64,000 nucleotides of DNA from an uncultured delta proteobacterium (lineage in GTDB: Bacteria > Desulfobacterota > Desulfobaccia > Desulfobaccales > 0-14-0-80-60-11): assembly GCA_963766185.1 (NCBI GenBank), contig CAVXZU010000014.1:113128-177127 (forward strand), given 5' to 3'. The notes under the pieces are model-generated. The model saw only the letters and a program-made list of their open reading frames with translations. It was not told the origin of the DNA and did no database searches. Positions 5,273-53,300 of the stretch are shown piece after piece. Within the stretch, counting starts at the first letter, position 1. Each line of letters opens with the position of its first letter. A program made the translations under genes and the position numbers.

Positions 5273-5450
5273 GGGCGCGCCCGGCAGCATTTTCGGGTTA
5301 GGCCGAGGTTGCCCGGGCCGCTTTCCGTGTGTATAGTTTGGACGGGGTTCTCTATTCCCCAACCCCCTCCCACCGGGAGAGGGGGAGGGGCAAAAGGACA
5401 CCAACAGTGCATCCCGCCGGCGGTTGCAGCCGGATTAAGGATTAGACCCC

Positions 5451-32660: not shown

Positions 32661-32758
32661 GGAAGTGCGAGGTTCACTGGTGGGGCCCCCGGACTTCAAA
32701 TCCGGTGTGCCGTCTGCTGAAGGCGGTAGGTGGGTTCGATTCCCATGCACTTCCGCCA
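32661..32758 (+). tRNA. selC: tRNA-Sec (anticodon TCA, 32696-32698), CCA encoded
   Basis: GGAAGTGC...GCACTTCC 8-bp acceptor stem, anticodon loop CTTCAAA, long variable arm (tgtgccgtctgctgaaggcggtagg), T arm GGGTTCGATTCCC, 3' GCCA. Same architecture and conserved blocks as E. coli selC (GGAAG..., GGACUUCAAAUCC, CUUCCGCCA). Confidence 0.93.
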
Positions 32759-33021
32759 ACGATTTGCGAGAATGGAGGTCAAATTTTTTGGCCTCCTTTT
32801 TCTTTGGTGAGTAGGTTGTGATGCCAATTTATATGGCCGGGGCTTATATGGACGAAGGCCACTTCACCTACAAATCTAAATCTGAATTCATGAAGGTGGC
32901 CCGGGCGGCGCTCAACCCTTTACAGGCAGCCATCTTTTGGCAAGCGGGCGGTAAACTGACCTGAGCCGATAAGCTGGTGCGTAAGTTTTTTTACCTGGCT
33001 CGGAAGCCATTGACCATCGGG

Positions 33022-33654
33022 CTAAGCGCTCAGTGGATTGAACTGGAGCATTGCTTGGAGCCGTTGGGCCCAGACCGCTGCCTGCTCAGGTTTATGGGCC
33101 TCGGGCAGACCGAGACTCAAAAGACTGGAGCGAGTCTCGTGCCACCGGCGGGCCATGATGGATTTCTGGCCTCGGGTTGCCGGTTCGGGCTCAGCCAGCC
33201 GAAGATAATGGTCGATCATTCTCTCGACGGCATTCCAGAGATGTCTTTCGAAGTAAGGTTTGAGTTCGCCCCAATCCTGGAATGGCTTTATGGTGTGTCC
33301 GTGTTCGGGACTTTCGAGCCGGTCTATAAAGTCGGCGAGACGTGGTTCTCGGTCTTGACATTCCCTGACGTAGATAAGTATTTCCCGGCGGGAATTCTCC
33401 AGGGCGGTTTCGTATTCCAGACAGGTCGGGGAACTGTAAATGCAGCCAAACAAGCCTACATAAATGGGAGCGCGGCGGACGCGATTCAAGAATGTGTCCT
33501 TCACCGTCTCGCGTTCCGGAGACCAGTCCTCGGCAAGATCGGCGGCAAGCAGCGGTAACTTCCGGATTACCTGCTCCATCCCTAAGCGTTCACGTTGAAA
33601 TTCTTTCTGTTTGCTACTGATGAACACTCGCACCACCTCAGAAATTTCAGCCAT
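33022..33654 (-). CDS. DUF4062 domain protein (TIR/flavodoxin-like fold family)
   Basis: 210 aa. VRVFISSKQKEFQRERLGMEQVI...APIYVGLFGCIYSSPTCLEYETALENSRREILIYV matches the DUF4062 signature (VFISS..-ER; Y.G..G.RYG; E...A; L.F). The C-terminal ~90 aa are unassigned. Confidence 0.75.
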   Translation of the reverse strand: MAEISEVVRVFISSKQKEFQRERLGMEQVIRKLPLLAADLAEDWSPERETVKDTFLNRVRRAPIYVGLFGCIYSSPTCLEYETALENSRREILIYVRECQDREPRLADFIDRLESPEHGHTIKPFQDWGELKPYFERHLWNAVERMIDHYLRLAEPEPATRGQKSIMARRWHETRSSLLSLGLPEAHKPEQAAVWAQRLQAMLQFNPLSA

Positions 33655-33690
33655 AGATTTTCTCCCCAGGATACATCAACAGAGAATACT

Positions 33691-36534
33691 TTAGCACGTG
33701 TCGCGCCCCTGCTGTCCAGCCCAGAGGCGCTTTAATTTGTTTAACTTTTGCGAAGGCAACCGGACCCGGTTGGTAGCGCCGTAGAGAGAATAACCGGACC
33801 AGTGGATCGGGTTCGACACATCGAAGCCGACAGCGAGTCCGTGCAAACAATCGAGTTGGGTTTGGCGAAGCGCCTCAGCGCGAGAGAGCGATACAAGCCG
33901 ATCATAATAACGCGCCAGGAACATCGGCGCAAGCCGGTCATCGACTTCCCACAGATTCGCCACAACGCTACGCACTCCTGCGGCCCGGAGAGTCTGGGGT
34001 AAACTTATGACCCAGCGCCCTGGCAAAAGAAAGTTATCCGCGGACCAGCACGACGCCAGCACCGCCTGCTCCACTCTCCGAAGATCGAGCGTATGCAATT
34101 GCCGCAACGTGAGAAATTCTTCTTGATTTCCCTGTATCAGCACGAACCCGGATTGATCAGGTGCATCTACTCGGAACCTGCCATGACAGACGATGTGGAA
34201 AAAGCGGGATTCCGGAAGCAGGCGAATGAGTGAGTCAGAAGTGGGATCAAACTCGTTGCGGGAAGCTATGCCATGGGTGCTGAAATGGTCACTCACCGCG
34301 GTCGCTTCTTCCAGGGCGACTTTGATGGGCGGGTAATCTTCCGTGCCCTTTAGAACGGCAGCAACCAAAGCTTCGCCCTTCTTTGGGGCGGAGGAATGAA
34401 CCCCGCTCATAATGTATTCTACGGAAATTGAAAAGCGCTCGACAAGATATTGTCCACCATAGGGCAAAGCAGAGAACGGCAACCCATGCAAGACATCATC
34501 CGGCATAAAGCGGATTTGCCGTATGCGGGGGGGCAGTGTGCTGAGAAAGGCGGGGAGAGTCAGGGCATAAGCAAGCGGATCAAGGATATCTGACAACATT
34601 TGGCCGGTGGCTCCCTCGAGCACTGACTCATGCCAGTGGCGCACCGCATCCCGGAGCTGAATACGGCTGAGCGCGGCGATCGCGAAGTCAATGGAAAGAG
34701 CTCGAACATGTATGACAATCACTTGATCCGGGAGAACCACAAAGCGGAACGTGGTGCGTTTCCGCCCATGGGCGACCATCCACCGGAAAACCGCAAAGCG
34801 GTTCCACAAAGGTGCCGGGCGAGCGCCAGCCACACGCGCCCCGATTTCGGACTGATAACGATCGAGATAACCCAGAAACCGAAGGAGATCGCGGGTTAAT
34901 TTCCACTTAAGGATCAGGCGACGCAGGATTCCCGAATTTTGGGCTTGTTGGCGAACCGCGGCCAGGCGCACAAATTCCCCGGCGAGAAACTCCTCTTCAA
35001 CCGTCCATTTGTTCAGCTGGTAGATGGCGCGTTCAGGGGGAGGCAGGGTCAGAGTGAGTCGGTTGAGCACGTCATCAGTCTGTGCCCGTAGGAGGGCCGC
35101 CGCCTCTTGGTGACCAGCCCGGGTCTCGCACCAGGACAGGGAACGATACACCTGCCAAAGGAGGCCGGTGGCCTGCATATCAATAAACGCATCGCGGACC
35201 CGCGAGAATCCGCTATAGGCCTTATCGATTTCGTTTTGATAATAGAGGAGGTTGGAGCGCAGGGCATCGAGCAGGGTGTGAATGAGGATTGAATCGGTTT
35301 CGCCAAACGCGGCGTTCAGTTCATCCAAATAGATTTCGGCTGTGGCCCAGTCTGAGCGGTCCAGGAGAAAATGGAACCCGAGGGTGCGATCCTCGAACGA
35401 CGCCAGATAGCTTTGACAAGCCGGGATGTCCATGGGGGAGGGCCAGCCAGAGGTCTCTGCGGCAAGGGGAATAGGCGGGCTCTCCTCGCCGCCCCACATC
35501 TGGAGAACGGACGGGCCAATGGAGATACCGTCCAGGAAAGAACGGGCCCGTCCGGAAGCAAGATATTCCAGAAGCTCCGCCCGGATTTGCAGACGTGCAT
35601 GATTGTTGGTCTCGACCGCGGTCTTGACGCGCTGAATCAACCGGGTGGCCTGCTGGGTTTGATTGAGTATTATGAGGATGCTGGCCAGATTGAGGGAAGC
35701 GTTCAATTCGGCTAATGGGAAAGATCCCTGCTGGCAGGTCTTAATTACCCGTTCGAAGCTTTCCTTAGCCAAGCCCAACTCACCCTGGAGAAGATGCAAC
35801 TTACCGAGCAACTCATCCCGCTGCACCGCAAGGGCTGGATTGGGCTGTTGGTCAAGCTGAGCCTCAAGGTTATCCAGCTCGGAATAAGCCCCCAGCAGAT
35901 CGCCGGATTCGAGGTTTGCCGTGGCGATGACTAGATGGAAGGCCGGTTTGGCTTGAAGGCTAATTTCACCTTGACCGTGCTGGAGGCCGCGCGCCGCGGC
36001 GGTTAGGGCGCAGCGATACTGACCGTTCGCGAGGTGGATGTGCGCCATTTCCAGATAAAGACGTGAAAACATGAGGGATATTTCGTCCGGAGCGCCGGTC
36101 CAGCCATGGCCCGATTCCCATTTTTTGAGGGCCGACTCCGTGAACTCGAGATCGTCAATGTTCCCGGGTGCGCCGTGGAGATTCAGCAGGATTGCGTAGG
36201 CGTCGCGAATCAATCCCTGAGCACGATAAACAGAGGCGAGTTTGAGAGCTGTGAAGTCGGCGCAATAGAGATTTGAGCTGGCCGCGTACCAAGCACGCAC
36301 GGCTTGCAGCAGATTCACAGCCGGGGTGTAAAACCCATACAGGACCGCGAGGTCGGAGAGCCGTTCCAGGGCGACGACGTCAAGGCCCGTGGCTGGACTT
36401 TGGGCGCCGACGCCCGCTTGCAGGCGGGCCACCATCAGATCGCGATAGCTCTGAAAGGCGCCTTCAAAGTCGCCACGCTGAAACTGGTCTTCGGCACGGT
36501 GAAAGGCCGTCCGCACAGCAGTAATATCCATCAC
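33691..36534 (-). CDS. TPR-repeat CHAT-domain (caspase-like) protease
   Basis: 947 aa. The N-terminal ~550 aa are TPR-like helical repeats. The C-terminal CHAT domain has catalytic His (FFHIVCHGRF) and Cys (AVLASCWSAD), then RAAGVRSVVANLWEVDD...FYD. Confidence 0.9.
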   Translation of the reverse strand: MMDITAVRTAFHRAEDQFQRGDFEGAFQSYRDLMVARLQAGVGAQSPATGLDVVALERLSDLAVLYGFYTPAVNLLQAVRAWYAASSNLYCADFTALKLASVYRAQGLIRDAYAILLNLHGAPGNIDDLEFTESALKKWESGHGWTGAPDEISLMFSRLYLEMAHIHLANGQYRCALTAAARGLQHGQGEISLQAKPAFHLVIATANLESGDLLGAYSELDNLEAQLDQQPNPALAVQRDELLGKLHLLQGELGLAKESFERVIKTCQQGSFPLAELNASLNLASILIILNQTQQATRLIQRVKTAVETNNHARLQIRAELLEYLASGRARSFLDGISIGPSVLQMWGGEESPPIPLAAETSGWPSPMDIPACQSYLASFEDRTLGFHFLLDRSDWATAEIYLDELNAAFGETDSILIHTLLDALRSNLLYYQNEIDKAYSGFSRVRDAFIDMQATGLLWQVYRSLSWCETRAGHQEAAALLRAQTDDVLNRLTLTLPPPERAIYQLNKWTVEEEFLAGEFVRLAAVRQQAQNSGILRRLILKWKLTRDLLRFLGYLDRYQSEIGARVAGARPAPLWNRFAVFRWMVAHGRKRTTFRFVVLPDQVIVIHVRALSIDFAIAALSRIQLRDAVRHWHESVLEGATGQMLSDILDPLAYALTLPAFLSTLPPRIRQIRFMPDDVLHGLPFSALPYGGQYLVERFSISVEYIMSGVHSSAPKKGEALVAAVLKGTEDYPPIKVALEEATAVSDHFSTHGIASRNEFDPTSDSLIRLLPESRFFHIVCHGRFRVDAPDQSGFVLIQGNQEEFLTLRQLHTLDLRRVEQAVLASCWSADNFLLPGRWVISLPQTLRAAGVRSVVANLWEVDDRLAPMFLARYYDRLVSLSRAEALRQTQLDCLHGLAVGFDVSNPIHWSGYSLYGATNRVRLPSQKLNKLKRLWAGQQGRDTC

Positions 36535-36552
36535 GACACCGATCAGCCTTAC

Positions 36553-39500
36553 TCAGTGCGAGGCGCGGGTTACCACGATGTAGGCTAACCGCTGGCGCCG
36601 CTTCTTCTCGTCATCTTGCCCCGCTGATGTTGGTAAAATCGCGATTACGGGCGTATAGCGGAACGATTGTTGAGCATGATATTCGTGGTTTGCCAGGCGA
36701 AGGGTAACCGTGGGCTTGGATCCGAAGGCCACAGTGGGCCGAAAATGGGCCAGGTCAACCAGGTCAATTTCATGGATGGAGACCTTTCCGGCGGAGATGG
36801 ACTGGCGTAGGCTGGCCTGCACGGAAGGATTCCAGTCGAGATTGTTGATCCCGGCGCCATCCGGGATATAGACCGGCCTATCCGGGTGGAGCAGCAAGGT
36901 TTCGAGATCAGCGGTCTTGCCTGTGGGAAGCTCTCTGGTTCGATACTCGAAAGTGATTTGTTTCCCCTTCACAACCGGCCGGAGATCCCCTGCGGGCTTA
37001 AACTGGAGGCGGTAGTTGCGCCAGTCGGAAATCGCGGCAAGGTGATGGAGATTTTCCTGGATGGGTTTGTTGCCGATGGAACCTCGGATACGCAGGTTGA
37101 CTTCATCGAAGAAGGCGTTGTACTCACGCATCGGAGTTAAATCCGCCTCTTGAAGACTGGCAATGGCTCGCTCCGGCTTGCCGGCGCTCAGTTCTGCTAA
37201 TCCCTTTCTGGCCATGAAATCCGGGTGTTTCCCATAGAAGAAAATCAAGTCGTCCATTTGACGTGAGGCCAGATCAAACTGGCCGCGGGCCAGATAGGCG
37301 TCATTTTGCTTGAGCTGTTCGCCTAAGAAGGCCTTAAATCGGACCCGGAATTTATCCGGATCAGCAGCGACCTCGCGGGCCGCCTTGAAGTAGTCGCGTT
37401 TCCCCAGGATTTGCTGCAGCCGGGCGGTATCTGAGAATCCACCGCCTCCGCCTGCTCCCAACTCCGCGAGTCGCCCGGGGTTCCCGTGCAAATCCGGGGG
37501 GAGATCCCGGTACCGGATGTAGTAAGAGCCGGTTTTGGGGTCGATATGGCCGGGTAACCGTTTACCACCGATAGTGAAATTCGTGAGGGGGACGCCTTCC
37601 GGGGGGCCGCGGGCGCCGAATTCAACGATGGGTGCTTCGGTAACTGCCGAGGCCGGCTTTATCCTGATGAAGCTTTCGCCAGGGAGGTCTGCCGGGACCT
37701 CGAACGTTTTCGTCCAGGCCACGTCGATGGAAAAAGCTTTGGGGTCCGCTTCGGCGATGCGAGCCTGGCACCCTGGGGAAATTACCTGGCTGTCTCTGGA
37801 GCCCGCCGTGAACCTGATCCAACGGCCGCTGCCGCTCAGTTCAACCGAGATACCCTTCCCAGGCACTAAGATCACTGATTTTACCGCCGGGTCGGATTGG
37901 AGTATTTGGAGGACCTTATCATCACGCGCAATGCTAAGCCGGCGGGCCGCGGTTTGAGCCCAGTCAACATCGCGACTGCGCCAGCCGATTTTGAAGCCCT
38001 GGGTACTGGGGGAGATTCGCAGTTCGCCGACCTCCGCGCCCGCGGCCCTGGTTTGGAGGACAAAGCGATGCGGGGTCCGTTCAATGACAGTTTCGAAATG
38101 AGTGTTTTTGATTTCCCCGAAAATGCCGCGTAAACGGACTTTGGGGCCGGTATGGGCGATAATCTTGGTGACATTACCCTCCACCGGCTTAAAAATGAAT
38201 TTACTCTTGTTGAGCATTTGGATCTCACCGACGCCGGACTCGGCAAAGTCAACAGCTCCCCGGCGAGCCGAGGCGGGGACCTTTTGGGTCAATGAGGCGC
38301 GGAAGGCCAGGGCTTCGCGGCGGGCCAGAGAGACACCCCCCCTCCAAATAATCAGACGGCCGGAAGGAGTATGGAGGATGGGAAGCGCTTCGGTTGAAGT
38401 GCCGGCATAGCCTTGGGGCAGGAAACTGATGGCGTCCCAGTTCCGGAACGTCAGTTCCGGATGCTTGCGGGCCCAGTCAGGGAACTGTTGCGGCTTTTCG
38501 TCAGGAACGTTTTTGAGGAAACCGAGCAGGCTGCCATTACCTTCCGTGTTGAGCCAGCCGATAAGTTGGCTCCACTTCATGATCTCGTTAAGACGTTCAT
38601 ACTCCGGTTCGTGGCGGGCGACCTCTTCAAAGTGGTCGTTCCACCAGGCGATGAATATACGGGTTACGTAGTTGGGCTCGGCTTCGGTACGGTGATCGGC
38701 GTTGGTGAGGAAATCATGGGGCACGGCGAAGACGCGGGTAGCGTTGCGTGCAAATGATATCGAGCCTTTATGTTGGCCTATCTGAAAACCGCTGTCGAGG
38801 GAACCGAGCCATAATCTGGTTTCGCCCAGGTCACGAAATTCCTGGTTATAGTTGACTGGGACAATTATGTCTGGATTGAATGGGAAGCCATCGATCGACC
38901 TGGGGCAGCATTGGTGAAGTCCAGTGCCCACAGCTTCATGAGCAGATCGGTATAGAACAGGACCATGCCGGTTTCGGTGCCTTGGAGTCGACCGTCATAC
39001 CGGGCTGCCTGAATCAGTCCCTTCCAGAAAATATCGCGAACGAGGGGGGAGGATTTATCTCCTGGGATACCGCTGGCCTGGAAGCCATGTAATAACGCTT
39101 GACTTAAGGCCCTTTCATCCTTCGCAGCGATGGCCTCCCGAGCCTTTTTAAAAGCGTTCTCGTCCAACAATATGGAAAGAATAAACTGAGTTTCCAACTC
39201 AATGCACAGCTCTTTGCCGAGGCCTCGGGCTTGGCAGCCTTTAATTAAGGCCTCGATTTTGTCGCCATGGATAAAAGCTTGGAGGGCCTCCTTACCGAAA
39301 ATTTTTTCGGCGTTTTTGCGGACTAACAACAATTCGTTCAGATAGGCGCCCATCTTCTCGAAGTCCATCCGAGGGTCGAGAGAACCCGCTGCCGGTCCGC
39401 TTGCCGGAGGAATCGTTTTCTGATTTCCAGACGGTGGCCACATCCTCGACCCGGATGTGGCGATACGGGCGGCTCAGAAGTTTCCGCCCTCCCAGCACAA

Positions 39501-40209
39501 GAGCGGAACCATCCTTCCGGGCATAGGTGATATCATCGATCTGGCTCATGAAGGCACGGAAGTCAGCGAGTGAGGTGATGGTCTGTTCCCGGTAGCCGTA
39601 GGTTGCGGTGAAGAGGGCCTTGCCTTCAAGGGATTGGCGGCGGGTTACCCGGGCAAACTGCTCGTCAGGGATGATTTGGTATTCGAAGATATGCACAACC
39701 GCGGGGATACTGCCCAAATTCTTGCGCTCTCTATCAGCAATGTGGGCCAGTTGATCGGGGCGCGCCGGGGTTCCCGCCGGAATGAGGGCAATGACCTCAC
39801 CTGTCCCGACGAGGGCGGAACGGGTTTCCCCTGATTCGATAGTGGCAACGCGCCGCAGGTGGTCATTGCGCGCCACCGGTATATCGTAGAGCACCTGGTT
39901 GAGGCTATCCAGAGGCAGGTTGAGCGAAGAGATAATCGAGATCAGCAGCCAATCCCGGTATTGATCAAGGAGATCGCGACGGGAAATCTTGCCGTTTTTG
40001 GTGCGGGAGTTTTCCTCTCGCCAGCCGGCCTGAAGCTCGTCGAGGTTGGCATCAAAGTCGATGGCGCGGACCTGGTCAACCGGAAAACCAACGAATTGAA
40101 GCGTCGCAGCCACTGGTTTGGCGATCGGGCTTAATAACTTTACCATGACAACGACGGCTACCAGGATGACCAAGGTGCTGAGCGTAGCGACGATCCTTTT
40201 GAGGTTCAT
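36553..40209 (-). pseudogene. ~1,200-aa N-terminally TM-anchored protein of unknown function; three overlapping ORFs joined by two frame changes
   Basis: ORFs 39292..40209 (TM helix IVATLSTLVILVAVVVMV), 38865..39443 and 36553..38931 run frame 0 -> 2 -> 0. The tails after the overlaps look like out-of-frame junk (R/S/G-rich). Plausible junctions are ...[28 protein letters not shown] (~39380) and ...[12 protein letters not shown]/(S)[20 protein letters not shown] (~38900, at cgatcgat). The C-terminal part has TPR-like helices. Confidence 0.6.
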
Positions 40210-40224
40210 CTCTGCTTCTCCTTA

Positions 40225-42171
40225 CTAGTCTGGTTGGCGAACCGCGACGAGTTTCCGGAACCGCTTAAAATGAAGCCGGGCGGCATCGGACTTAGGGTCC
40301 TGGGCGAAGGACCAACGTACCAACGCTTCGCTATAGAGCGCTTCAACCTCTTGCTGGCGTGGATCAGGCGCCAACACGCCATTACTCAAAAACTGTTCTG
40401 ATTTCTCAATGATGGTAATATGATCGCCCTGAGCGGAGGCCTGGATAATAGCTTGATAAGCGGCATCGCGCGCGTTGCGGTGGCTGGGCTCTCGAATGCC
40501 AAGGACTGCAGCGCAGCAGATCAGGACCAGGGCAAGCGCAAGTTCGGCTTTGACCCACTTCGCCTGGCGGCTGAACAGCCAGAGCATGAACGGTTCCAAG
40601 CTGAACCTCTTCTTATCAGTTTCCGGGACGATCATGGGCAGGGAGGCCTGGCTGGCTTCAGACTGAGGTTCCGCCTGGGGCGCCGGAGAGAGTTCTGCTT
40701 TGGTTGCATCCCTGAGCAGCCGGTTGGCCAGAAAGGAGGTAACGGTGTTGGCGTCGAGTGCGGCAAGTGCGGGATCTTCGGCGGCGATCTGCATCCAAAG
40801 AGTGCTGATCTGCGACTCGGATTCTGGTTTCTGTTCGGCAACTTTTCCCAAGGCGGTGAAAAGGTTGAGGGGGCGCGGATCTTCCACCGTGGGCTTGTCG
40901 AAGCCCATTTCTGTCCAGATCGTGAACGCCAGTGCTTTTTGTCTGTCGTGCTGCAGTTGGGCGGAAGCTTCCGATTCCGCAAACTCGTTTATGAGGGAAA
41001 AGCCAATGGCTGCCTCCTGGTGCATCCGCACTCCCTCCGGGGTGAGAGTGGTGTTGGGGGCAGCTTTGATTTCTTCGAGTACCTTTGATACGTCCTCTTG
41101 GAGATCGGTCATCAGCTTGATGATTTGTTCACGTGAACTCCAAAACTTTTCAGAGCCGGGATTTAATACAACCGCGGTTTCTACTTCAAGCAGGGCTGTT
41201 GACAGCTTTCCGGCATTCGCCAACTTCACGGCGCAAAGGTGATGCAAATCGCCGAGTAGATCGAGAACAAACAGGCTGTACGGAGCATAAGAGCGCAAGG
41301 TATCAAGACGCAGAATTCCCTCGTGAATCGTCTCTGCATCTCTGGTGGACGCCGTTCCAGAGTCATCGCCGCTGAGGCTTTCGAGAGTCGCAGAGAATTG
41401 AAGGTCTGCTGCGAGATTAACGTACTCCTCCTCATCTGGAAAGCGCTCGACCAAGTCTAATTTTGCGCGCCAATAGGCGTTTTCCCATTGTTTGGCATCC
41501 CGAAGAGCAGCAATTTCCCGTTTGGTATTGGTGACGAAAGCCGAATCGTCGTGAAAACAAAGCTCAGCGCAGTCACGCTTAAGCTTATAGATATAGTTGA
41601 GGTGAACGAAACAGCGATGCGATGGCTCTGGTGATGTGCCCAACGACCGAAGCCCATTGTAGAAAGCCCAATGTACATTTAAAAAGAGTTCCTGGACAAA
41701 GTGGCGGCGGATCTGGTCGAGAGAAACGGCACCAGACAGGCCAAGCCGATCGGATACTTCGGTTATGAGCTGCTGCCAATCCGCACCTGCTTTGACGACT
41801 TTACCAAGTTGCAAGTGAGCTTCTTGCCAGAGGAAATCGGCGCGGACGTATCTGCCTTGGCGTTCGGCGTCGATGGCCAACTGCCGGAGGCGAAGGAGAC
41901 GACCGATACGTTCTGGGAAATTGAGTTTTAGGCCAGCGATAAAACGAGAGCGGCTCAAGGTCTCGCCGGCCGTGACAATCTCATGCGCAACCTTTTGGGC
42001 AGCAGATGGTTCGCTCTGGCCGACGGCGTCTGTTCCAGGCTGGGGCTCGAAAATCCAATCAAATGCCGGAGTTGAATCTGCATTTGCCATTTCATTCGCC
42101 TCCGTTCTCCCCTGACGGGCCACAGTGGGGTTGGGAATTGTGTTGAAAAAGTTTCTGTTCCATAAAGACAC
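40225..42171 (-). CDS. 648-aa all-helical protein with a single TM helix near the C-terminus, unknown function
   Basis: Intact ORF 15 nt upstream of the giant gene. TM segment WVKAELALALVLICCAAVLGI at about residues 545-570. No P-loop or known catalytic motif seen. Confidence 0.7.
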   Translation of the reverse strand: MSLWNRNFFNTIPNPTVARQGRTEANEMANADSTPAFDWIFEPQPGTDAVGQSEPSAAQKVAHEIVTAGETLSRSRFIAGLKLNFPERIGRLLRLRQLAIDAERQGRYVRADFLWQEAHLQLGKVVKAGADWQQLITEVSDRLGLSGAVSLDQIRRHFVQELFLNVHWAFYNGLRSLGTSPEPSHRCFVHLNYIYKLKRDCAELCFHDDSAFVTNTKREIAALRDAKQWENAYWRAKLDLVERFPDEEEYVNLAADLQFSATLESLSGDDSGTASTRDAETIHEGILRLDTLRSYAPYSLFVLDLLGDLHHLCAVKLANAGKLSTALLEVETAVVLNPGSEKFWSSREQIIKLMTDLQEDVSKVLEEIKAAPNTTLTPEGVRMHQEAAIGFSLINEFAESEASAQLQHDRQKALAFTIWTEMGFDKPTVEDPRPLNLFTALGKVAEQKPESESQISTLWMQIAAEDPALAALDANTVTSFLANRLLRDATKAELSPAPQAEPQSEASQASLPMIVPETDKKRFSLEPFMLWLFSRQAKWVKAELALALVLICCAAVLGIREPSHRNARDAAYQAIIQASAQGDHITIIEKSEQFLSNGVLAPDPRQQEVEALYSEALVRWSFAQDPKSDAARLHFKRFRKLVAVRQPD

Positions 42172-42212
42172 CTCCTCATCGAAGCAGGATTGAGGAGTTG
42201 GAGGAGCGATGC

Positions 42213-42983
42213 CTACACTTTGGCGTTCTTGGCAATTTCAATGTTGGTCAGCCAACCCATAACCGGTTCATCAGGTTTACCGTGTTCCGTAACGAAAACA
42301 TCTTGACAATCCTTTACACCCTCCATGATGGCTTTTGCGTCTGCAAGATTTTGATCTAGAGCCACAAAGGCCAATGTCTTGCTAACGTAATCCTTCATCC
42401 CATTGAAGTTCAGGAAATCTTCCAGAGTCGTGGTGTTCAATTGGAATCCCTGCCCCTTAGCAAGGCTTTCTTCGGCGAGGAACTTGTAGAGCATGCTCTG
42501 ATGGATCACGTACCGGGTGACACCCTTGTCGTCCAGGATAGGAATGCGGGTGACCACGCCCACCAGAAAGTCTTTCAAAATCTCGAGTTTTATATCCTTT
42601 TCGCTCTGGCCGGCGGACAACCGTACGGCCTTTATAGAGCTTACCGGCAACATGGCTTTCCGGACCGGGATGCTGCGAAGCTTCTCATCCGGGGTTAACT
42701 CTTTGACTGTATTAATAAAGGACTGACTTGCTGCCTGAAAGTTATCTTTAGAAAAGTAGTAGGCCAGTATCGTCCCGACCCAAGTTCCGATAAGCGGTAA
42801 GATGGCGGTAAAGACCATTTGGGTTGTCTCTCGGAGGTGCGAGGTGCTGGTGAGGGCAACGGCAATAATGACCATTGCTGCCAGAAGCATCAAACCTATG
42901 GTGGATCCGTAAACAATCCGCCTGGCGATGGTGGCACGGTCCTGTCGTTCGGCGACTTCAACCGCTTTATCTCCGTTTGACAT
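42213..42983 (-). CDS. 2-TM membrane protein with cytoplasmic CBS-domain pair
   Basis: TM helices IVYGSTIGLMLLAAMVIIAVAL and MVFTAILPLIGTWVGTILAYYF. CBS-like units IPVRKAMLPVSSIKAV...VTRIPILDDKG and VSKTLAFVALDQNLADAKAIM...DVFVTEHGKPDEPVMGWLTNIEI. Confidence 0.75.
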   Translation of the reverse strand: MSNGDKAVEVAERQDRATIARRIVYGSTIGLMLLAAMVIIAVALTSTSHLRETTQMVFTAILPLIGTWVGTILAYYFSKDNFQAASQSFINTVKELTPDEKLRSIPVRKAMLPVSSIKAVRLSAGQSEKDIKLEILKDFLVGVVTRIPILDDKGVTRYVIHQSMLYKFLAEESLAKGQGFQLNTTTLEDFLNFNGMKDYVSKTLAFVALDQNLADAKAIMEGVKDCQDVFVTEHGKPDEPVMGWLTNIEIAKNAKV

Positions 42984-43052
42984 ACGTATTCTCCTTGTAA
43001 TTAATTATCTTTATGTATCTGAATGAATGGACGGGCCATATCCAGTCAGATC

Positions 43053-43265
43053 TTAAATCCTTAGCCTTTTAGAGTTTGGATATTTCCCATCAATGATATG
43101 CTGAACGCATTTCAAGACCTCACCCTGGGGGGATATTGATCCGGGTAAGACAGGGTTTTGATAACCAAGTTCTTTGATTTTTTTGTGATAAACTGGTTCA
43201 CAAGGAAGACAAAAAGAAAGAAAAGTTTGAGGTGGGGGAAGCGAGGAGGAGGCAGTCATGCTCAT
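43053..43265 (-). CDS. small hypothetical protein with CxxC (possible degenerate glutaredoxin-like fold)
   Basis: 70-aa ORF. First reading frame downstream of the predicted promoter. FLSFCLPCEPVYHKKIKELGY...QHIIDGKY loosely resembles NrdH/Grx. The RBS is poor. Confidence 0.3.
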   Translation of the reverse strand: MSMTASSSLPPPQTFLSFCLPCEPVYHKKIKELGYQNPVLPGSISPQGEVLKCVQHIIDGKYPNSKRLRI

Positions 43266-43383
43266 TACCTCGATAAAAATAAAAGCCGGGCCCCTCTTTC
43301 GGAAACCCGACTTTTTACGTCAGCATAGTGATGCCCCCTGCTGGGGATTGAATGGCAGTATTTTATCTACCGCATTTTTTAAA

Positions 43384-43412
43384 ATTTAACCATTAACCTA
43401 TAAATTTGTCAA
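43384..43412 (-). promoter_or_regulatory. candidate sigma-70 promoter of the island operon
   Basis: Minus strand reads TTGACA (43412-43407) - 17 nt - TTAAAT (43389-43384). It sits in a short AT-rich tract ~120 nt upstream of the first island ORF. Confidence 0.5.
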
Positions 43413-43438: not shown

Positions 43439-43831
43439 TTGCATGGTCCAGCAGTTTGGGCCGGGACCCCTTGCTTTCTCCATTTTTGGCAGAATAGACA
43501 CGTGGCTGAAGGTGCTCTTGAGAAGTTGGGGATGAACTTGAAGCCAGCCAAGACCAAGGCCGAGGTTCAACGGGTGCAGTGCCTGTGGTTGCGGGCTTCT
43601 CTGAGGCTTTCTGCGGGCCAGGTGGCTACCCGCTATAGCTTTGCTTCCCAAGCTCTCAATTCCGGAACTCCTCAGCATTTAATCGGGGCTTTCTTGGGGC
43701 ATAAAGATCCCCAATCTACCGAGCGCTACGCCCATCTGGAAACCGGGCCCCTGGTCCAGGGCTGGAACCGCCACGAGCAGGTGCGGCACCAACTTGGCAC
43801 CAAAGCGCAAATTGGCGGCGCTAACCTATGA
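43439..43831 (+). pseudogene. tyrosine recombinase (integrase) remnant, C-terminal box only
   Basis: ...ATRYSFASQALNSGTPQHLIGAFLGHKDPQSTERYAHL retains the LGH....T..Y.H catalytic tail, but the HxxR box is degenerate. The ~250 N-terminal residues of a normal integrase are missing. Ends 30 nt before the distal direct repeat. Confidence 0.65.
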
Positions 43832-43860: not shown

Positions 43861-43889
43861 TGGGTTCGATTGCCATGCACTTCCGCCAA
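43861..43889 (+). repeat. distal direct repeat (att-like) = copy of the tRNA-Sec 3' end
   Basis: tgggttcgattGccatgcacttccgccaa versus tRNA positions 32731-32759. The single mismatch is at 43872. Confidence 0.85.
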
Positions 43890-45552: not shown

Positions 45553-46065
45553 TTAAGGTTCATTTTCAATCTTGGCCAGGATACGTTGCCGGTCTTCCTC
45601 TTTACTGAGATCAAAGATACGGATGCCGAAGTGCTCGGCCACCTTGACGCCCATGCCGGTGCCCCCGCCCTCGGGCTTGTCCCAGTCGGGCAGGGCAATG
45701 ACAAACTCGCTGCCTTCGATGATGCCGATATTGCGGCAGTGCAACCTGACCGTTCGGTCGTTGAGGGTTTCCGCCTTCGGATGCAGCTTTCTGACCAGCA
45801 TCTGGCGCTCATGCGTGTCGGGCTCCACAATCACCTGGTTCAACAGGAAAATGAACTCAGGGTTGTAGCCCTCCCAGGGGAGATGCAGCTCCACCAAACG
45901 AGGGTTCACCATACTAGCCCCCAGGGCAAAGAACCGCTCGCTGCCGGCGGCATTGCCACTGGAGACGGTTAAGCCTTGGAGAGCCAGCCAACCGCCGATC
46001 TTGATGAGTAAATTTTGCTCTTCCGGTGAAGTCTCTTTCTTACCGATGCAGGCCACCTTTTTCAT
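45553..46065 (-). CDS. DprA/Smf-like SLOG (Rossmann) domain protein, stand-alone
   Basis: 170 aa. VACIGKKETSPEEQNLLIKIGGWLALQGLTVSSGNAAGSERFFALGA and ...LHCRNIGIIEGSEFVIALPDWDKPEGGGTGMGVKVAEHFGIRIFDL follow the DprA pattern (GSR..S..G......L...G..vVSG.A.G.D..A / RNriI.g.s....V.e....SG...t...A...g..v). Confidence 0.55.
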   Translation of the reverse strand: MKKVACIGKKETSPEEQNLLIKIGGWLALQGLTVSSGNAAGSERFFALGASMVNPRLVELHLPWEGYNPEFIFLLNQVIVEPDTHERQMLVRKLHPKAETLNDRTVRLHCRNIGIIEGSEFVIALPDWDKPEGGGTGMGVKVAEHFGIRIFDLSKEEDRQRILAKIENEP

Positions 46066-47310
46066 AAACTCTCTCCCTTGCCGCCCTCAGGATCACCCAA
46101 ACAACCAAGGCTGCCATGACTTCTGCCGCCCTGCCTCCAGTGATTGTACCAAGTTTTAAGTGAGGATGGGATTCAATTCAAGCTCTAGAGATGGTTTGCC
46201 AACGGAAACGCGAAAATCGGCGCTACGAAAGTTTCTCAATCTTGGCACGATCAGCGCTTATCACCCCTGCCTTAAAAATTGCCGATATGCTCTGGATGGC
46301 GAAACCTTTCCGGACCATCGTGATGAGCGCATAAAAAGCTTGCCCGCTACCCTGCCTTCGTACCGACCGCGTCCTGCTTGGCAGCTTTCAGCACAACTTT
46401 CTCCGGCTCACCTAACTCCTTGAGGGCCTCTCACCCCAGGCACTTCGCCGGCCTCGCCCCAAAAAGCCTCGCGCGGTGGTTCGGTGGTCACGTTGGCCAT
46501 ATTGCCCACGTAAAATTTCGTATTCATATCTTCTCGATGCTGCAAAGCTATACCCGCCAAAAAGCAGGGCGCACAGCAGTCAGGTAAAAAAATCGGCCGG
46601 GGAGACTGGGCAACCCGTCCGATCATTGTCCAGGACTTGTGGCCCGGCTTTCATGCTGACCTGATAAACTTTTTCTATTCTACAAGAAAATTAATCAATG
46701 CCAGACTAATAAAATTAACATTGGACCTGCTCGTAAAATTAAAGAGTTGAAGTCATAATTGGCATAATGGAAGAATGGAATGATTGCAGCAGATATTCTT
46801 GAGCTTGTGAAAATAATAAACAAGATCAAAAAAATCATTAAATCATAGATAACTTAAAGTATTTGCCATGTAATAAATATATTCTCATAGCGGTTGGTTT
46901 CTCATTGGACTCTTTTTTATTAATGACAAAACTATAATTTTATGTCAAAGTTAAGATTAGCATAAAATTAGGGGAAATGGAGTTTGCCTGGTTGATTCAT
47001 GGGTGACTCCGAGCGTCAGCCTAAGGTAAGGCCGTTTGACGACTGCCACTCTATCCAGCCAGTCTATCTCATTGCCGCGGCTCAGGCGCCAAGACCTGCC
47101 CCTTTCACTCCACTGGACAATCACCTATAAAAAGAAGATAATTCAAAAGGTTGTGGCAATACTCCCCTCAGGAGATCTCTCGAGGCCGGTGGACTTGCGG
47201 CACGTAGTCTGAGGGATTCATAGCAGCCGCCTTGCACCCCAATTTAATCGTCTTACCTCGGATTTCGGTTGAGCTGGCCGAGTAGCTCAGGTCAAAAGGA
47301 GACCTTAAGC

Positions 47311-50300
47311 ATGGTGTTGAGCAGCGAGAGCCCTCGTGAGCCCTTGCTTCGGCTGAGGTCTTACCTTCCGGGAGGGGACTTGGGGCGGAAGTATGCCGGC
47401 GACGACCTGCCGTTGCGATCGGAGTTGTTCAGCGCCGAGCAGATGGAGCAGCATGGCAAGATCCTGGCGGGCTTGCACCAGCTGAGCCCGGAACGTCCCC
47501 GGGACCGGCTGCTGACACGGCTGGCAGAGAATGAAGACCTCCTCATTGGGGTCCGCGGCCTGTTGACGGAGGCGGTCAAGGCCAATCGCCGAATGACGCC
47601 GGCCGGGGAATGGCTGCTCGACAACTTTTATCTGATCGAAGAACAGATTCGCACCGCCAAGAGGCATTTGCCCAAAGGTTACAGCCGGGAACTCCCTCGC
47701 CTGCTGAATGGTCCGTCGGCCGGGCTGCCCCGGGTGTATGACCTGGCGCTGGAGACGATCTCACACGGCGATGGACGGGTGGACCCGGAAAGTCTCAGCA
47801 GTTTCGTTGCCGCCTACCAGACCGTCATACCCCTGAAGTTGGGGGAATTGTGGGCCATCCCCATCATGCTGCGCCTGGCTCTGATCGAGAACCTGCGGCG
47901 CGTGGCCGCCCGGATTGCCGCCGACCGGACCGACCAAAACCATGCCGATTACTGGGCGGACCAGATGACGGAGATCGCCGAGACCGACCCCAAGAGCCTG
48001 ATCCTGGTGATCGCCGACATGGCGCGGTCGAACCCGCCGATGGTGAGCTCGTTCGTGGCGGAACTGACGCGCCGGTTGCAGGGGCAGGGCCCCGCCCTGG
48101 CCTTGCCCCTCACCTGGATCGAGCAGCGACTTGCCGAAAGCGGGTGGACGATCAAGAAGTTGGTACAGGCAGAGAACCAACAACAAGCCGCGGATCAGGT
48201 CTCCATGAGCAATAGTATCGGCAGCCTCCGTTTCCTGGGGGCGATGGACTGGCGCTCCTTCGTCGAGACGCTGAGCGTGGTCGAGCAGACCCTGCGTACG
48301 GATCCTCACGGCGTCTATGGCACGATGAATTTTGCCACCCGTGACCGCTACCGACATGTCGTGGAGAAAATCGCCAAGACCAGCCCGCACTCCGAAAGCG
48401 AGATCGCGCTCCAGGCGATCCAATTGGCGCACGAGGGCGCGGCCAGGAACGGCGACGACCGCACGGCCCATGTCGGCTTTTATCTGATCGATGCGGGATT
48501 AACGCAGCTCGAGGCGGCCGTGGCCAGGCGCCGCTCCTTCTTGGAGACGGTGTGCAGTGTGACCTGCCGGTTCCCTTTGCTGCTGTATGGGGGTCCGATC
48601 ACGCTGCTTTCGGTAATCATTGCCGGCGGCTTCCTGGCGCAGGCCCATGCCGGGGGGGTATCCGGTTGGCCGCTGGCGCTGATCGCCATCCTCTCGCTTC
48701 TAGGCGCCAGTCATCTGGCAATCGCCCTGGTGAACTGGCTGGCGACGTTGCTGGTGACGCCGCACCCACTGCCGCGCCTGGACTTTTCCGCCGGAATTCC
48801 CGTGGACTCGAGGACCCTGGCGGTGGTGCCGACCATGCTCACGAGCCCCCAGAATATCACGGCTCTGATCGAGGCGCTTGAAGTCCGGTTCCTGGCAAAC
48901 CGGGACGAAAACCTGCACTTCGGTCTGCTGACTGATTTTCGGGATGCGGACGCAGAAACCCTGCCGGAAGACGAGTCGCTGCTGAGGCTGGCCCGGCAGG
49001 GCATCGAAGCGTTGAACAAAAAGTACCGGAACGCCAAAGGCGATATTTTTTTCCTGTTCCATCGCCCTCGCCGCTGGAATCCCCGGGAGCGGATTTGGAT
49101 GGGTTACGAGCGCAAGCGGGGCAAGCTCGCGGAACTGAATTCCTTGTTGCGCGGGGGCTCCAGGGAGTGTTTCTCGCTCATCGTCGGGGCGACTGCAGCC
49201 TTATCGGGCGTGAAGTACGTGATCACCCTGGATACCGACACGCAACTGCCCCGGGACTCGGCCTGGCAGCTGGTGGGAGCCATGGCGCACCCCTTGAACC
49301 GGGCGCACTTACGACGCGGACCAGCAGCTGGTGCTGCAAGGGCTACGGCATCCTGCAGCCCCGCGTGGCCGTGAGCCTGCCCGGCACGAACCGGTCGCGT
49401 TATGCGCAACTCTGGGGGAGTGATCCGGGCATCGATCCGTATACCCAGGCCGTTTCCGATGTTTACCAGGATCTGTTCCAGGAAGGCTCGTTCATCGGCA
49501 AGGGCATCTACGAGGTCGATGCGTTCGAGCAGGCGCTCCACGGGCGCTTCCCCGAAAACCGGATTCTCAGCCACGATCTTCTGGAAGGGTGTTACGCCCG
49601 GGCCGGGTTGTTGAGCGATGTGCAGCTCTACGAGGAATACCCCTCGCGCTATAGCGCCGACGTAAGCCGCCGGTACCGTTGGATCCGCGGGGATTGGCTT
49701 ATTGCGCGGTGGCTGCTGCCGGGGGTTCCCGGCCCTGGCCCACACCTTCAGAAGAATCCGCTCTCGGGTCTATCCCGATGGAAGATTTTCGACAACCTGC
49801 GCCGCAGTCTCGTGGCCCCGGCGTTGACGCTCCTGTTGCTCCTGGGCTGGACGGTCCTGCCATCAGCCTGGTTTTGGACCTTGTCGGTGATCGGGATCAT
49901 CCTGATTCCTTCTTTGATGAGCTCTCTTCTGGATATGTTTCGGAAGCCGGGCGATGTGCTTCTGGGCCAGCACCTCACTGGCATAGGGCGCTCGACCGTC
50001 CGGCACCTGGCCCAGGCCGCCTTTACGCTGGTGTGTCTCCCCTATGAGGCATTTTTCAGTCTGGATGCGATCATCCGCACGAGCGTCCGGCTGCTGATTA
50101 CCCACAAGCGGCTTCTTGAATGGAATCCGTCGGGCGATTCCGATCGCCCCGGCCGCGGGGATCTGGTCGGCTCCTATCAAACGATGTGGATCGGCCCCTT
50201 TGTCTCTGTGGCCGCGGTAATCTACCTCGCGTGTGCGAGGCCAGCCGTGTTATTGACGGCTGGGCCCATACTGGGCCTCTGGTTGGCTTCGCCGGCTATC

Positions 50301-53300
50301 GCCTGGTGGATCAGTCGACCGCTCCTGCGCCGCGCCGCCAGGTTGACGGCAGACCAAACCCTCTTCCTCCAGAAGATTGCCCGAAAGACCTGGGCGTTTT
50401 TCGAGACCTTCGTCGGCCCGGAAGATCATTGGCTGCCGCCCGATAACTATCAGGAGCATCCCGTGGCCAGGGTGGCGCACCGCACCTCGCCGACCAACAT
50501 GGGGCTGGCGCTCCTGGCGAATTTATCCGCCTACGACTTCGGCTACATTTCAGCCGGACGACTTGTCGAACGCACGGCGAACACGCTCCACACCATGGCA
50601 GCTTTGGAGCGGCACCGGGGCCACTTCTACAACTGGTACGACACGCAGTCTCTGCAGCCTTTGTTGCCCATCTACATTTCCACCGTGGACAGCGGCAACC
50701 TGGCGGGGCATCTGCTGACCTTGCGGGCCGGTCTGCTCGCCCTTCCCGATCAGCCGATCCTGGGGGGACGCTGGTTTGACGGACTGATTCACACCCTCAA
50801 GATTATTGTGGACGCGGCGGCAGGAGCCGCTCTGGCCCCGCTGGCCCAACTGCAAAAAGATCTGGCGTCAGCAGCCGCGGCCCCGCCAACTACGCTGGCG
50901 GCGGTGCGGCTGTGCCTCGAGGGGCTGGCGGCGTCCGCCGAGGTGATGGTCCGCAGCCTCGATGCCGATCCCGAGAGCCAGGTGCGGTGGTGGACGGATA
51001 TCCTGTCACGGCAGTGCCGGGATGGACTCGATGAGTTGACCTTTCTGGCGCCATGGACCTCGTTGCCGGCTTCGCCGGGCAATCTCAGCGAGTTCCCGGG
51101 TATCGACGGGAATCCGACGCTCCGCCAATTGGCCAGGCTTGAGGTGAATCTGCTGCCGGCCATCGCGCCTCAACTCGCTTTGGCGGTAACGCCCGAGGAG
51201 TGCGCCCGGTTTGATAAGCTTCAAGGCCTCATCACGGAGGCCAGCCGCCGGGCCGGCGCCAGGATTGCGGCTATTGAAGAGCTGGCCCGGCAATCGAGCG
51301 AATTCGCCCGTATGGAGTATGATTTCCTGTTCGACAAGGCGCGTCACTTAATGGCTATCGGCTACAATGTGAGCGAGCGTCGGCTGGACTCGAGTTACTA
51401 CGATCTGCTGGCTTCGGAAGCGAGATTTCCCACGTTCGTGGCGATTGCCCAAGGTGAGTTGCCCCAGGATAGCTGGTTTGCCCTGGGACGTCTCCTCACC
51501 ACCGTGGGGGGAGAATCGCTGCTCCTGTCGTGGAGCGGGTCGATGTTCGAATACCTCATGCCGCTCCTGGTAATGCCGACCTACGAACACACGCTGCTCG
51601 ACCAGACCTGTAAAGTGGCGGTGGCGAGGCAGATCGAGTATGGCAAAAAGCGCGGGGTGCCGTGGGGCATTTCAGAATCCGGTTACAATGCCATCGATAT
51701 TCATCTCAACTACCAGTACCGCGCCTTCGGCGTGCCCGGCCTGGGACTCAAGCGCGGCCTGGCCGAGGACCTGGTCATCGCCCCGTATGCCTCGGCACTG
51801 GCGTTGATGGTGGCGCCCGAGGCGGCCTGCTCGAATCTCGAGCACCTGACCGCGGCAGGGTTTGAAGGGAAATTCGGCTTCTATGAAGCCATCGACTACA
51901 CGCCGTCGCGCCTGCCCCGGGGCAAATCCAGCGCCGTGGTTCGGTCCTTCATGGCCCATCACCAGGGCATGAGCCTCCTCTCCCTGGCCTATCTGCTCCT
52001 GGACCGGCCGATGCAGCAGCGCTTCGAATCGGACCCGTTGTTCCAGTCGACCTTGTTGTTGCTCCAGGAGCGGATTCCCAAAGCCACGACTTTTTATGTG
52101 CACACCGAAGAGATCACCGGCCCACAGCCGACCTCCAGTGATGCGGAGACCCCGGTGCGGGTTTTCAACAGCCCCGATACACCGATACCGGAAGTGCAGT
52201 TGTTGTCGAATGGCAGGTATCATGTGATGATCACCAACGCCGGCGGCGGTTACAGCCGCTGGAAGGATATCGCGGTCACCCGTTGGCGCGAAGACAGTAC
52301 CTGCGACAACTGGGGCACGTTCTGTTACCTCCGGGACGTGACGAGCGGGGAGTTCTGGTCCACCGCCTATCAGCCGACCCTGAAGCGATCCGGGAATTTT
52401 GAGGCCATCTTCTCGGAAGGGCGAGCCGAGTTCCGTTGCCGCCAACAAGACTTTGACGCCTATACCGAGATCGTGGTTTCCCCCGAAGACGATATCGAGT
52501 TGCGCCGCATCACCATTACCAATCGCGCCCGGACCACAAGAGAGATCGACGTCACGAGTTACGCCGAAGTAGTCCTGGCGCCGCCAGCCGCGGATGCACT
52601 GCATCCGGCGTTCAGCAATCTCTTTGTGCAGTCCGAGATTATCCGCCCCCGGCACGCCATCCTCTGCACACGCCGGCCCCGCTCCCTCGACGAGCGGGCG
52701 CTCTGGATGTTTCACCTGATGGCGGTGCATGGGGCGGAGATCGGTGAGATTTCCTACGAGACTGACCGCATGCGGTTCATCGGCCGGGGCGGGACCGTCG
52801 CTGATCCAGAGGCGATGCGCGGTCCAGAGGGGCTCTCGGGCGCCGAGGGCTCAGTGTTGGACCCGATTGTCGCCATCCGGTACCGCCTCAGGCTCGATCC
52901 GGGAGCCTCGGTAACGGTCAATGTGGTCTCCGGCATCGGCGAAACTCGCGAGGCGTGCCTGGGCCTGGTAGAGAAATACCAGGACCGGCGTCTGGCGGAC
53001 CGCGTCTTTGATCTGGCCTGGCCGCATAACCAGGTGGTTTTGCGGCAGATCAACGCCTCAGAGGCAGATGCTCAGCTCTACTGTCGCCTGGCGAGCTCGG
53101 TAATCTATGCCAATGCGACGCTGCGAGCCGACCCCGGTGTCCTCATCAAAAACCGCCGGGGGCAATCCGGTCTCTGGGGTTACTCCATTTCCGGGGATTT
53201 GCCCATCGTGCTGCTGCAGATTGAAGATCCGGCCAATATCGACCTGGTGCGTCAACTCATACAGGCCCATGCCTACTGGCGCTTAAAAGGATTGGCGGTT

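Follow-up and report, generated by a model that had tools for sequence, protein, structure and literature searches.

A 64,000-nucleotide stretch of DNA from an uncultured delta proteobacterium (contig CAVXZU010000014.1, positions 113,128 to 177,127; hereafter the window) carries, integrated at its selC gene, an island in which three adjacent genes form a cassette that recurs in nine bacterial phyla. The genes encode a membrane-anchored helical protein that we call X, a much larger protein with an N-terminal export signal that we call Y, and a TPR-CHAT caspase-like protease. The best explanation that we have, one that we hold to be about as likely as not, is that this cassette is an unnamed, horizontally scattered conflict system, probably of the abortive-infection kind, with X-Y-CHAT as its core and the following cascade as its mode of action. 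Y would detect an event at the cell envelope, X would carry the signal across the membrane and act as a docking scaffold, and the TPR-CHAT protease, once switched on, would cleave and so activate a swappable downstream killer. In the window lineage that killer would be a 210-amino-acid DUF4062/NIR enzyme that depletes NAD+; roughly half of the relatives would instead use a second caspase, of the C14 type, so that the proteases form a cascade. A conflict role is suggested because the core is fixed, the catalytic dyad of the protease is intact, Y carries export signals, the neighbouring genes are death-related and the location is marked by the remnant of a mobile element. Each step, taken singly, has a precedent: a CHAT protease that activates a caspase, the docking of a TPR-CHAT protein in Craspase, and trans-membrane signalling through a TPR-CHAT protein in DdvA. 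All coordinates below are those of the window, and island genes are read on the minus strand unless stated.

The cassette was traced through its largest member. A 792-amino-acid fragment of Y, used as the query, gave 120 homologues, mostly of 1,100–1,300 amino acids, in which the only Pfam domains are the TPR repeats of two members. Relatives of Y occupy 112 loci in a scan of about 185,600 species genomes, with one genome taken per species. When the window proteins were compared with 86 loci by tblastn, the core was found in 47 non-redundant loci from nine phyla with the order and strand X-Y-CHAT kept, a count that takes in loci with X-Y-CHAT or, at minimum, Y together with a full-length CHAT gene. 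Acidobacteriota contribute 17 of these loci, Cyanobacteriota 14, Bacteroidota five and Pseudomonadota three; Verrucomicrobiota, Gemmatimonadota and Planctomycetota contribute two each, and Chloroflexota and Actinomycetota one each. Cultured strains are represented by Bradyrhizobium ganzhouense and Pseudomonas sp. C2B4. In every one of the five annotated neighbourhoods inspected, Y is followed by a same-strand TPR-CHAT gene of about 950 amino acids, and four of the five also have an unannotated gene of 500–650 amino acids ahead of Y (in an Acidobacteriota locus, L001, the X-like region is split). Matches to X lie directly upstream of Y in most loci by tblastn. An exhaustive representative search of 1.84 billion proteins with X returned 409 representative clusters at E ≤ 1e-3; word-indexed homologue searches, even with a 25-sequence profile, gave only two to three proteins.

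An earlier reading of the DNA letters (the original prediction) had proposed a single operon of five genes, the other two encoding a 2TM protein of 256 amino acids and the DUF4062 protein. The coordinates agree with its description of five co-oriented minus-strand genes and with its gap lengths, which are 36, 18, 15 and 41 nucleotides from the 33022 side. Co-occurrence elsewhere holds strongly for X, Y and CHAT and fails for the remainder, as DUF4062 accompanies 6 of the 47 cores and the 256-amino-acid gene is found in none of the 86 loci, so that the conserved unit has three genes rather than five. Two small open reading frames (ORFs) of the window likewise went unmatched across all 86 loci.

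Several relatives depart from the common arrangement. In three cyanobacterial loci (L036, L042 and L049) X is undetectable and a C14 caspase of 712–759 amino acids lies directly upstream of Y, followed in L036 and L042 by an ORF of about 125 amino acids. This arrangement agrees with a Fischerella neighbourhood string in the source data of Kaur et al. (2021), which includes a caspase with CHASE2 and two transmembrane segments, and a membrane-spanning caspase may replace X in the three loci. Actinomycetota, Myxococcota and Geobacteraceae have shorter Y-like proteins whose similarity is confined to the first ~500 residues. Those of Geobacteraceae (L055, L059, L062 and L063; 780–880 amino acids) have no CHAT gene nearby, and many of the actinobacterial ones (L070–L085) have a CHAT gene 3–4 kb downstream. 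From this distribution the N-terminal domain of Y appears to be an older, separable module. In L001, a metagenome-assembled genome (MAG), genes for YukD, a ThiF E1, a UQ_con E2, Prok-RING and FHA lie directly upstream on the same strand (2045–8091), so that a ubiquitin-like conjugation set precedes X-Y-CHAT and three more caspase-family genes follow it in a dense cluster of conflict genes.

The protease (33691..36534, 947 amino acids) has a CHAT domain over residues 656–919 (Pfam, E = 1.5e-48), and His784 and Cys829, the catalytic pair, are invariant in an alignment of 24 relatives, which bears out the earlier description of a TPR-CHAT protein with an intact His/Cys dyad. A profile of the 24-member family matches TPR proteins in the PDB over residues 150–316, and the closest solved CHAT protein is Csx29 (7zoq), matched at E = 0.13 over the catalytic region only; single-sequence PDB searches with the CHAT, DUF4062 and 256-amino-acid proteins returned nothing. 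The only PADLOC match in the operon is that of BovA to the CHAT region (E = 1.3e-3, 15.8 bits). We found no signal peptide, strong transmembrane segment, hydrophobic N-terminus or anti-sigma domain in the protein, and it is predicted to be cytosolic. An exported CHAT protease like that of DdvA was considered and ruled out, as there is neither a signal peptide nor a transmembrane helix.

Y (36553..40209, ~1,219 amino acids) is predicted to lie on the other side of the membrane. In 46 of the 47 loci its N-terminus has a short Lys/Arg-rich start followed by 15–20 hydrophobic residues. In Bacteroidota, one Planctomycetota genome and some Acidobacteriota the hydrophobic segment ends in a lipobox Cys, in Emticicia it is a typical cleavable signal, and in the window it has the form of a signal anchor. 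The bulk of Y is thus probably outside the cytoplasm, either exported or anchored. Y as an N-terminally anchored, cytosolic substrate was also considered and is ruled out by the variants with a lipobox or a signal peptidase I (SPI) site. The original prediction had cast the large membrane proteins as substrates or scaffolds of the protease; because the bulk of Y appears to be exported and CHAT, which carries no signal peptide, cytosolic, Y is unlikely to be its substrate, and a role as an extracytoplasmic sensor is more likely.

An AlphaFold2 (AF2) model of the Y homologue P0003 (model m82fb1b76dcde; predicted local distance difference test (pLDDT) 84, predicted template modelling score (pTM) 0.81) has an N-terminal helix and then an alpha/beta domain of about 520 residues that holds most of the invariant residues, followed by a region rich in beta structure, a stretch of TPR repeats and, at the C-terminus, another alpha/beta domain. 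A Foldseek search of this model against the PDB gave no match at E < 1e-3, a Y profile gave none against PDB sequences, and 30 members compared with Pfam gave TPR matches only; Y and X of the window match no Pfam, NCBIfam or PADLOC family. The sole Foldseek match below 1e-3 for Y in any library is a Tupanvirus soda lake 'J domain-containing protein' in BFVD (A0A6N1NXY0_2, E = 9.8e-5, probability 1.0, 640 columns), for which the superposition is poor. Judged from the model, this match may point to eukaryotic or giant-virus relatives of part of Y.

X (40225..42171) starts either at a GTG at 42171, giving 648 amino acids, or at an ATG at 42090, giving 621. The AF2 model of X, obtained with sequences from the representative search, is all-helical (pLDDT 89.7, pTM 0.82), with a TPR-like solenoid over residues 57–485, a linker, one long helix that includes the transmembrane segment (541–563), and a C-terminal three-helix unit of about 85 amino acids. 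Its Foldseek matches are TPR scaffolds and include LapB and LbcA, which are adaptors of proteases; none reaches E < 1e-3. With a single transmembrane helix and no signal peptide, from which we take an N-in orientation, X is predicted to be a bitopic inner-membrane protein with its solenoid in the cytosol and a short domain on the outer side. Hydrophobic segments in the N-terminus of Y, in X (541–563) and in the 256-amino-acid protein (22–51 and 55–75) agree with the earlier count of three membrane-anchored products. If CHAT and the solenoid of X are cytoplasmic and Y lies outside, X alone could connect the two compartments. A more specific form of the proposal, which we advance as a tentative possibility, is that of a trans-envelope immune sensor: exported Y, with its novel fold, would recognise an attack on the cell surface or within the periplasm (adsorption or injection by a phage, for example, or damage to the cell wall or membrane) and would act through X on the TPR-CHAT protease. 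This 'initiator caspase' would in turn cleave, and thereby activate, interchangeable executioners, which could be an NIR NADase, C14 caspases or TIR proteins.

Y of the window is distributed over three ORFs (39292–40209, 38865–39443 and 36553–38931), to which a homologue aligns by tblastn in frames -3, -1 and -3 in succession. The original prediction mentions frame breaks, and two are present in the sequence, at ~39384 and ~38902. Comparison with L087, a 29-kb contig that has the same gene order and is 98.8% identical over 16 kb, shows that the window lacks TC at ~39384 (a 2-nucleotide deletion) and T at ~38902 (a 1-nucleotide deletion). Y in L087 has its own extra G, at the equivalent of window position 39180. 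Since each assembly is intact where the other is broken, the breaks look like assembly errors (most likely) or very recent lesions. We think it distinctly unlikely that the locus is instead a decaying remnant, with real breaks in Y and a cargo that is non-functional whatever the family does elsewhere. The deletion at ~39384 does destroy GSGFSLDP, an invariant motif of the Y family that is whole in L087, Y is frameshifted in this sister contig too, the integrase of the island is already a remnant, and three of the four frame-shifting indels inside listed ORFs in the 16-kb comparison are concentrated in Y. Against decay, the break sites differ between the two near-identical assemblies, and a 3-nucleotide repair of the window restores one ORF of 1,219 amino acids with all conserved family motifs. 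A relative whose X is 72% identical (L088) keeps at least 726 unbroken Y codons across both sites. Y differs between the window and L087 by 18 synonymous and 11 non-synonymous changes, a ratio of non-synonymous to synonymous rates (pN/pS) of 0.19, and all five genes, at 0.13–0.47, are under purifying selection. L087 also has a contig name in the long-read style, presumably as in MAG assemblies where indel errors are common. Just outside the island (45553–46065), a gene for a conserved hypothetical protein of 170 amino acids, which faintly resembles SLOG cluster4 and has 285 members in its 90% cluster, is whole in the window and broken by a 1-nucleotide indel in L087 (6010–6523). As this unrelated gene is broken only in L087, it supports indel errors in these assemblies.

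Directly after CHAT in the window operon lies the gene for the DUF4062 protein (33022..33654, 210 amino acids). Its domain (PF13271, residues 9–73) scores 29.3 bits against a cut-off of 24.7, and the ~70 residues that come after it form a conserved tail. All seven cassette-linked homologues keep Glu80 of the motif YSxPTxxEY; by motif position, we infer this residue to be equivalent to PsAvs2 E108 or TEP1 E1008. A DUF4062 profile matched only de novo TIM barrels in the PDB, which we regard as spurious, and PADLOC 2.0 gave no match for the window protein. The gene has a pN/pS of 0.13 against L087. Three 2026 preprints (among them bioRxiv 10.64898/2026.09.04.749371 and 10.64898/2026.05.01.722283) show DUF4062, renamed NIR, to be a TIR-like NADase with a catalytic Glu and the effector of several phage-defence systems. 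The presence of the domain in the operon thus stands from the original prediction, while its description there as a TIR-like module is superseded by that of a NADase effector of phage defence. By analogy with these systems, the 210-amino-acid protein would be a NADase and an accessory effector of the window lineage.

The position next to the core is variable and death-related. A DUF4062 homologue directly follows CHAT in L008, L010, L013, L026, L048 and L086 (6 of 47), and a second caspase-family gene adjoins the core in at least 21 of the 47 by tblastn, with L042 and L049 as extra cases; the two kinds of gene are never found together in one of these loci. Pfam matches among 69 immediate neighbours include Peptidase_C14 (14), CHAT (4), nSTAND1 (3), TIR_2 (3) and DUF4062 (3), and PADLOC identifies 14 caspases, three matches to TIR models and single matches to DISARM DrmA, MADS and AriA. 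At least 9 of the 14 cyanobacterial loci have a DUF1822 gene and a C14-caspase gene immediately upstream of the cassette. This pattern also bears on the direction of the proposed cascade. In type IV Thoeris, N7-cADPR made by a TIR protein activates a caspase-like protease (bioRxiv 10.1101/2024.10.24.620036), DUF4062 is itself TIR-like and TIR_2 genes flank some of the cores, so the wiring could be reversed, with DUF4062 acting upstream and its NAD-derived product activating CHAT. We hold this to be highly improbable, because most cores have no NIR gene: activation of CHAT cannot generally need DUF4062 when 41 of 47 cores are without it, and the occupation of the slot by a second caspase in about half of the loci better fits a downstream effector.

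The remaining gene (42213..42983) encodes the 256-amino-acid protein, with transmembrane segments at residues 22–51 and 55–75. The original prediction had seen in it a CBS pair that serves as the adenine-nucleotide sensor of the system. What we find is a single CBS motif below threshold (E = 0.029 for the whole protein and 0.0067 for its soluble part; 15–17 bits against a cut-off of 24). The protein has no homologue in the 86 loci by tblastn or upstream of X in L088, where a histidine-kinase fragment stands in its place, and its 90% cluster has three members. It therefore cannot be the sensor of the system, being absent from the other loci, and appears to be a lineage-specific passenger or add-on outside the conserved cassette. 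Two independent SLATT models, SLATT_1 of NCBIfam (E = 0.038) and SLATT_fungal of Pfam (E = 0.023), faintly match the two-TM region in the N-terminal 100 residues (42684–42983), both far below the cut-offs; if these matches are real, the gene would encode not a sensor but a membrane effector of the SLATT type whose tail is CBS-like. The five-gene model, in which a membrane CBS pair senses adenine nucleotides and triggers proteolysis of two large membrane proteins by CHAT, can still point to a co-oriented gene 41 nucleotides upstream of X, to the weak CBS match and to purifying selection on the gene (pN/pS 0.15). It is largely refuted by the lack of co-conservation, the CBS score falls under the Pfam cut-off and the bulk of Y would be exported beyond the reach of a cytosolic protease, and we now find this model very hard to credit.

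A number of observations weigh against an immune cascade built on X-Y-CHAT. The Lys and Arg residues around the transmembrane helix of X number 55 before and 77 after, which favours the opposite topology. The accessory gene is not recognisable in 20 of the 47 loci (flanks are short in 14 of the 47), DUF4062 accompanies only six cores, and its coupling to CHAT is drawn from adjacency across the 36-nucleotide gap. A terminator-like hairpin lies between the promoter-like site, within about 70 nucleotides of it, and the first ORF. Y as given is three ORFs, and if these are real the window copy is dead. Finally, we infer the defence role from context only; that X, Y and CHAT interact, and that CHAT cleaves the downstream killer, is proposed. 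An alternative is a module of envelope signalling or regulated proteolysis with a part in development or in the response to stress, in bacteria whose lifestyles are complex, where Y would monitor or act on the envelope and X would present substrates to CHAT as an adaptor, much as in LapB-FtsH or LbcA-CtpA. The extracytoplasmic placement of Y and the resemblance of X to LapB and LbcA in Foldseek are compatible with such a role, most of the host bacteria are soil dwellers, filamentous or complex in some other way, and an obvious death effector is absent beside the core in those 20 loci. We nevertheless judge this non-immune explanation unlikely. The distribution is very patchy (112 of about 185,600 species, over nine phyla), the window copy lies on a tRNA island with an integrase remnant, the neighbours are enriched in caspase, TIR, NIR, nSTAND1, DISARM and MADS genes, and the partner in the window is of a NADase family known only as a defence effector.

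The conflict-system reading also has to be set against the systems already described. The original prediction found that the combination matched no named system, and this holds: PADLOC, Pfam and NCBIfam are blank for the two largest novel proteins, and our literature search found no published description of an X-Y-CHAT cassette. It also holds that scans of the operon products with Pfam, NCBIfam and PADLOC detect no P-loop NTPase, nuclease, gasdermin or CRISPR/cyclase family, and a repeat search gave only four two-copy families and no CRISPR array. At the level of sequence, the features that define Craspase, SAVED-CHAT/PCaspase, type IV Thoeris, Borvo, the EACC/ternary systems and DdvA appear to be absent, and only the accessory DUF4062 gene appears to belong to a known effector family.

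Among the closest known systems is a type III-B CRISPR/CBASS hybrid whose CHAT protease activates a second caspase by cleaving it (Steens et al., bioRxiv 10.1101/2023.06.23.546230). This SAVED-CHAT/PCaspase system and the proposed cascade share CHAT as a switchable first protease, with a second caspase adjoining at least 21 of the 47 related cores, and the abortive-infection logic that we propose. They differ in that the CHAT protein here has N-terminal TPR rather than SAVED, no cyclic-oligonucleotide synthase or CRISPR locus was found, the sensor side would consist of the membrane proteins X and Y, and the partner in the window would be a NADase, with no second caspase there. In Craspase (type III-E gRAMP with Csx29) the TPR-CHAT protein docks on the sensor. 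The TPR-CHAT architecture is common to both, and a protease docked on and switched by a large sensor, cleaving a co-encoded protein, is also the model proposed here. There is no Cas7-11/gRAMP, CRISPR array or Csx30/31 here, the similarity to Csx29 is marginal, and the putative sensor is an exported protein where that of Craspase is an RNA-guided complex. DdvA is a transmembrane anti-sigma factor with a periplasmic TPR-CHAT region whose active site is incomplete (PMC11506125). It likewise ties TPR-CHAT to trans-envelope signalling, in its case in control of phage defence, but its CHAT domain is periplasmic and fused to a transmembrane helix and an anti-sigma domain, whereas the protease here is separate, predicted to be cytosolic and intact in its dyad; moreover, no sigma factor is encoded in the window island.

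The NIR systems (Avs2-NIR, Vulcan, Vesta, Swarozyc and Evangelion) have in common with the window a DUF4062 domain, here above the cut-off and with an invariant Glu in the expected motif, and VstA of Vesta is similarly a small stand-alone NIR protein beside partner genes. The 2026 NIR papers mention no CHAT, caspase or protease partner, so X, Y and TPR-CHAT would be new partners. Borvo is a single-gene system (BovA), to which the match is weak (15.8 bits), while CHAT here is always inside a three-gene cassette. Type IV Thoeris pairs a TIR gene with a protease gene; here we find no TIR Pfam or PADLOC Thoeris match, DUF4062 is the partner of the protease, and X and Y are added. The EACC1 and EACC2/TRADD-N systems of multicellular bacteria (Kaur et al. 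2020, 2021, eLife) are alike in combining membrane-associated constant parts with caspase-family proteases and variable effectors, and in their phyletic bias. From the text and tables of Kaur et al. (2021), the cyanobacterial DUF1822 and C14-caspase pair would correspond to their TRADD-N+TPR and EACC2-caspase, and the Fischerella neighbourhood in their source tables probably contains Y and CHAT, unnamed and undiscussed. The Pfam families built from these studies have no match in X or Y, eight other phyla have the cassette but not the EACC2 pair, and the three-gene X-Y-CHAT system is in neither paper. EACC, VMAP, TCAD, EAD and MoxR-vWA have no Pfam match among the window products or 30 Y homologues, and appear only as neighbouring genes in some relatives.

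The island that holds the cassette in the window is integrated at tRNA-SeC (selC, 32661..32758, plus strand; ARAGORN; Rfam tRNA-Sec, 74.7 bits), whose last 28 nucleotides and one adjoining base form the left copy of a 29-nucleotide direct repeat (32731..32759), an att-like boundary. The right copy, at the far boundary (43861..43889), is identical at 28 of 29 positions. Just inside it lies the remnant of a tyrosine integrase (43439..43831, plus strand), of which only the C-terminal catalytic region is present (Pfam Phage_integrase, E = 4.3e-6; profile positions 131–169 of 172; 27.0 bits against a cut-off of 27.1). GC content falls from 0.60–0.64 in the flanks to 0.47–0.58 in the interior. The locus is thus an 11.1-kb tRNA-integrated island minus its working integrase, and because that integrase is reduced to a remnant the island is probably no longer mobile. 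The assignment to a selC island made in the original prediction is confirmed by these features; its placing of all island cargo on the minus strand is contradicted by the integrase remnant.

Upstream of the operon, a promoter-like site (TTGACA-18-TAAATT, 43383..43412, minus strand; consensus scan, 10 of 12 matches) is followed by the terminator-like hairpin already mentioned, a GC-rich 14-bp stem and then a T-run (43281..43315, minus strand; consensus scan). The single near-consensus promoter named in the original prediction is therefore present, but such sites are no more numerous in the region (five) than in shuffled sequence (6.4), and the hairpin follows. The 109 nucleotides at 43270–43378 fold with -35.2 kcal/mol (z = -2.8), the leader region has no match in Rfam, and three copies of the leader are near-identical, too similar for covariation. 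The stretch 43270–43412 may correspond to a small RNA, or to a leader that attenuates transcription. Beyond the island, a very large GH94/glycoamylase-type gene (47269–56042, plus strand), whose product is probably a cyclic beta-1,2-glucan synthase, appears as two overlapping ORFs of 701 and 2,315 amino acids in different frames. It is likewise split in L087, into 704 amino acids and a 2,225-amino-acid product that runs off the locus. Either the frameshift is common to both genomes or the assemblies make a systematic error here.

To our knowledge, the caspase-family defence systems described so far detect threats within the cell, by means of RNA-guided complexes, cyclic nucleotides or TIR signals. 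The candidate system described here would operate as caspase-based abortive-infection systems do, but its module of sensor and adaptor would be new: a large exported family with neither domain annotation nor, in the libraries searched, a significant structural neighbour would be joined to a TPR adaptor in the membrane and a CHAT protease of the initiator type. If this is correct, an outside-in route would be added to caspase-family defence, and the chain of receptor, adaptor, caspase and executioner would follow a logic like that of animal death-receptor signalling, of a kind undescribed in bacteria. It would also provide a second natural example of a bacterial caspase cascade, give the NIR NADase a protease-linked context that is absent from the 2026 papers, and assign a function to about 400 unannotated sequence clusters in soil and cyanobacterial genomes.

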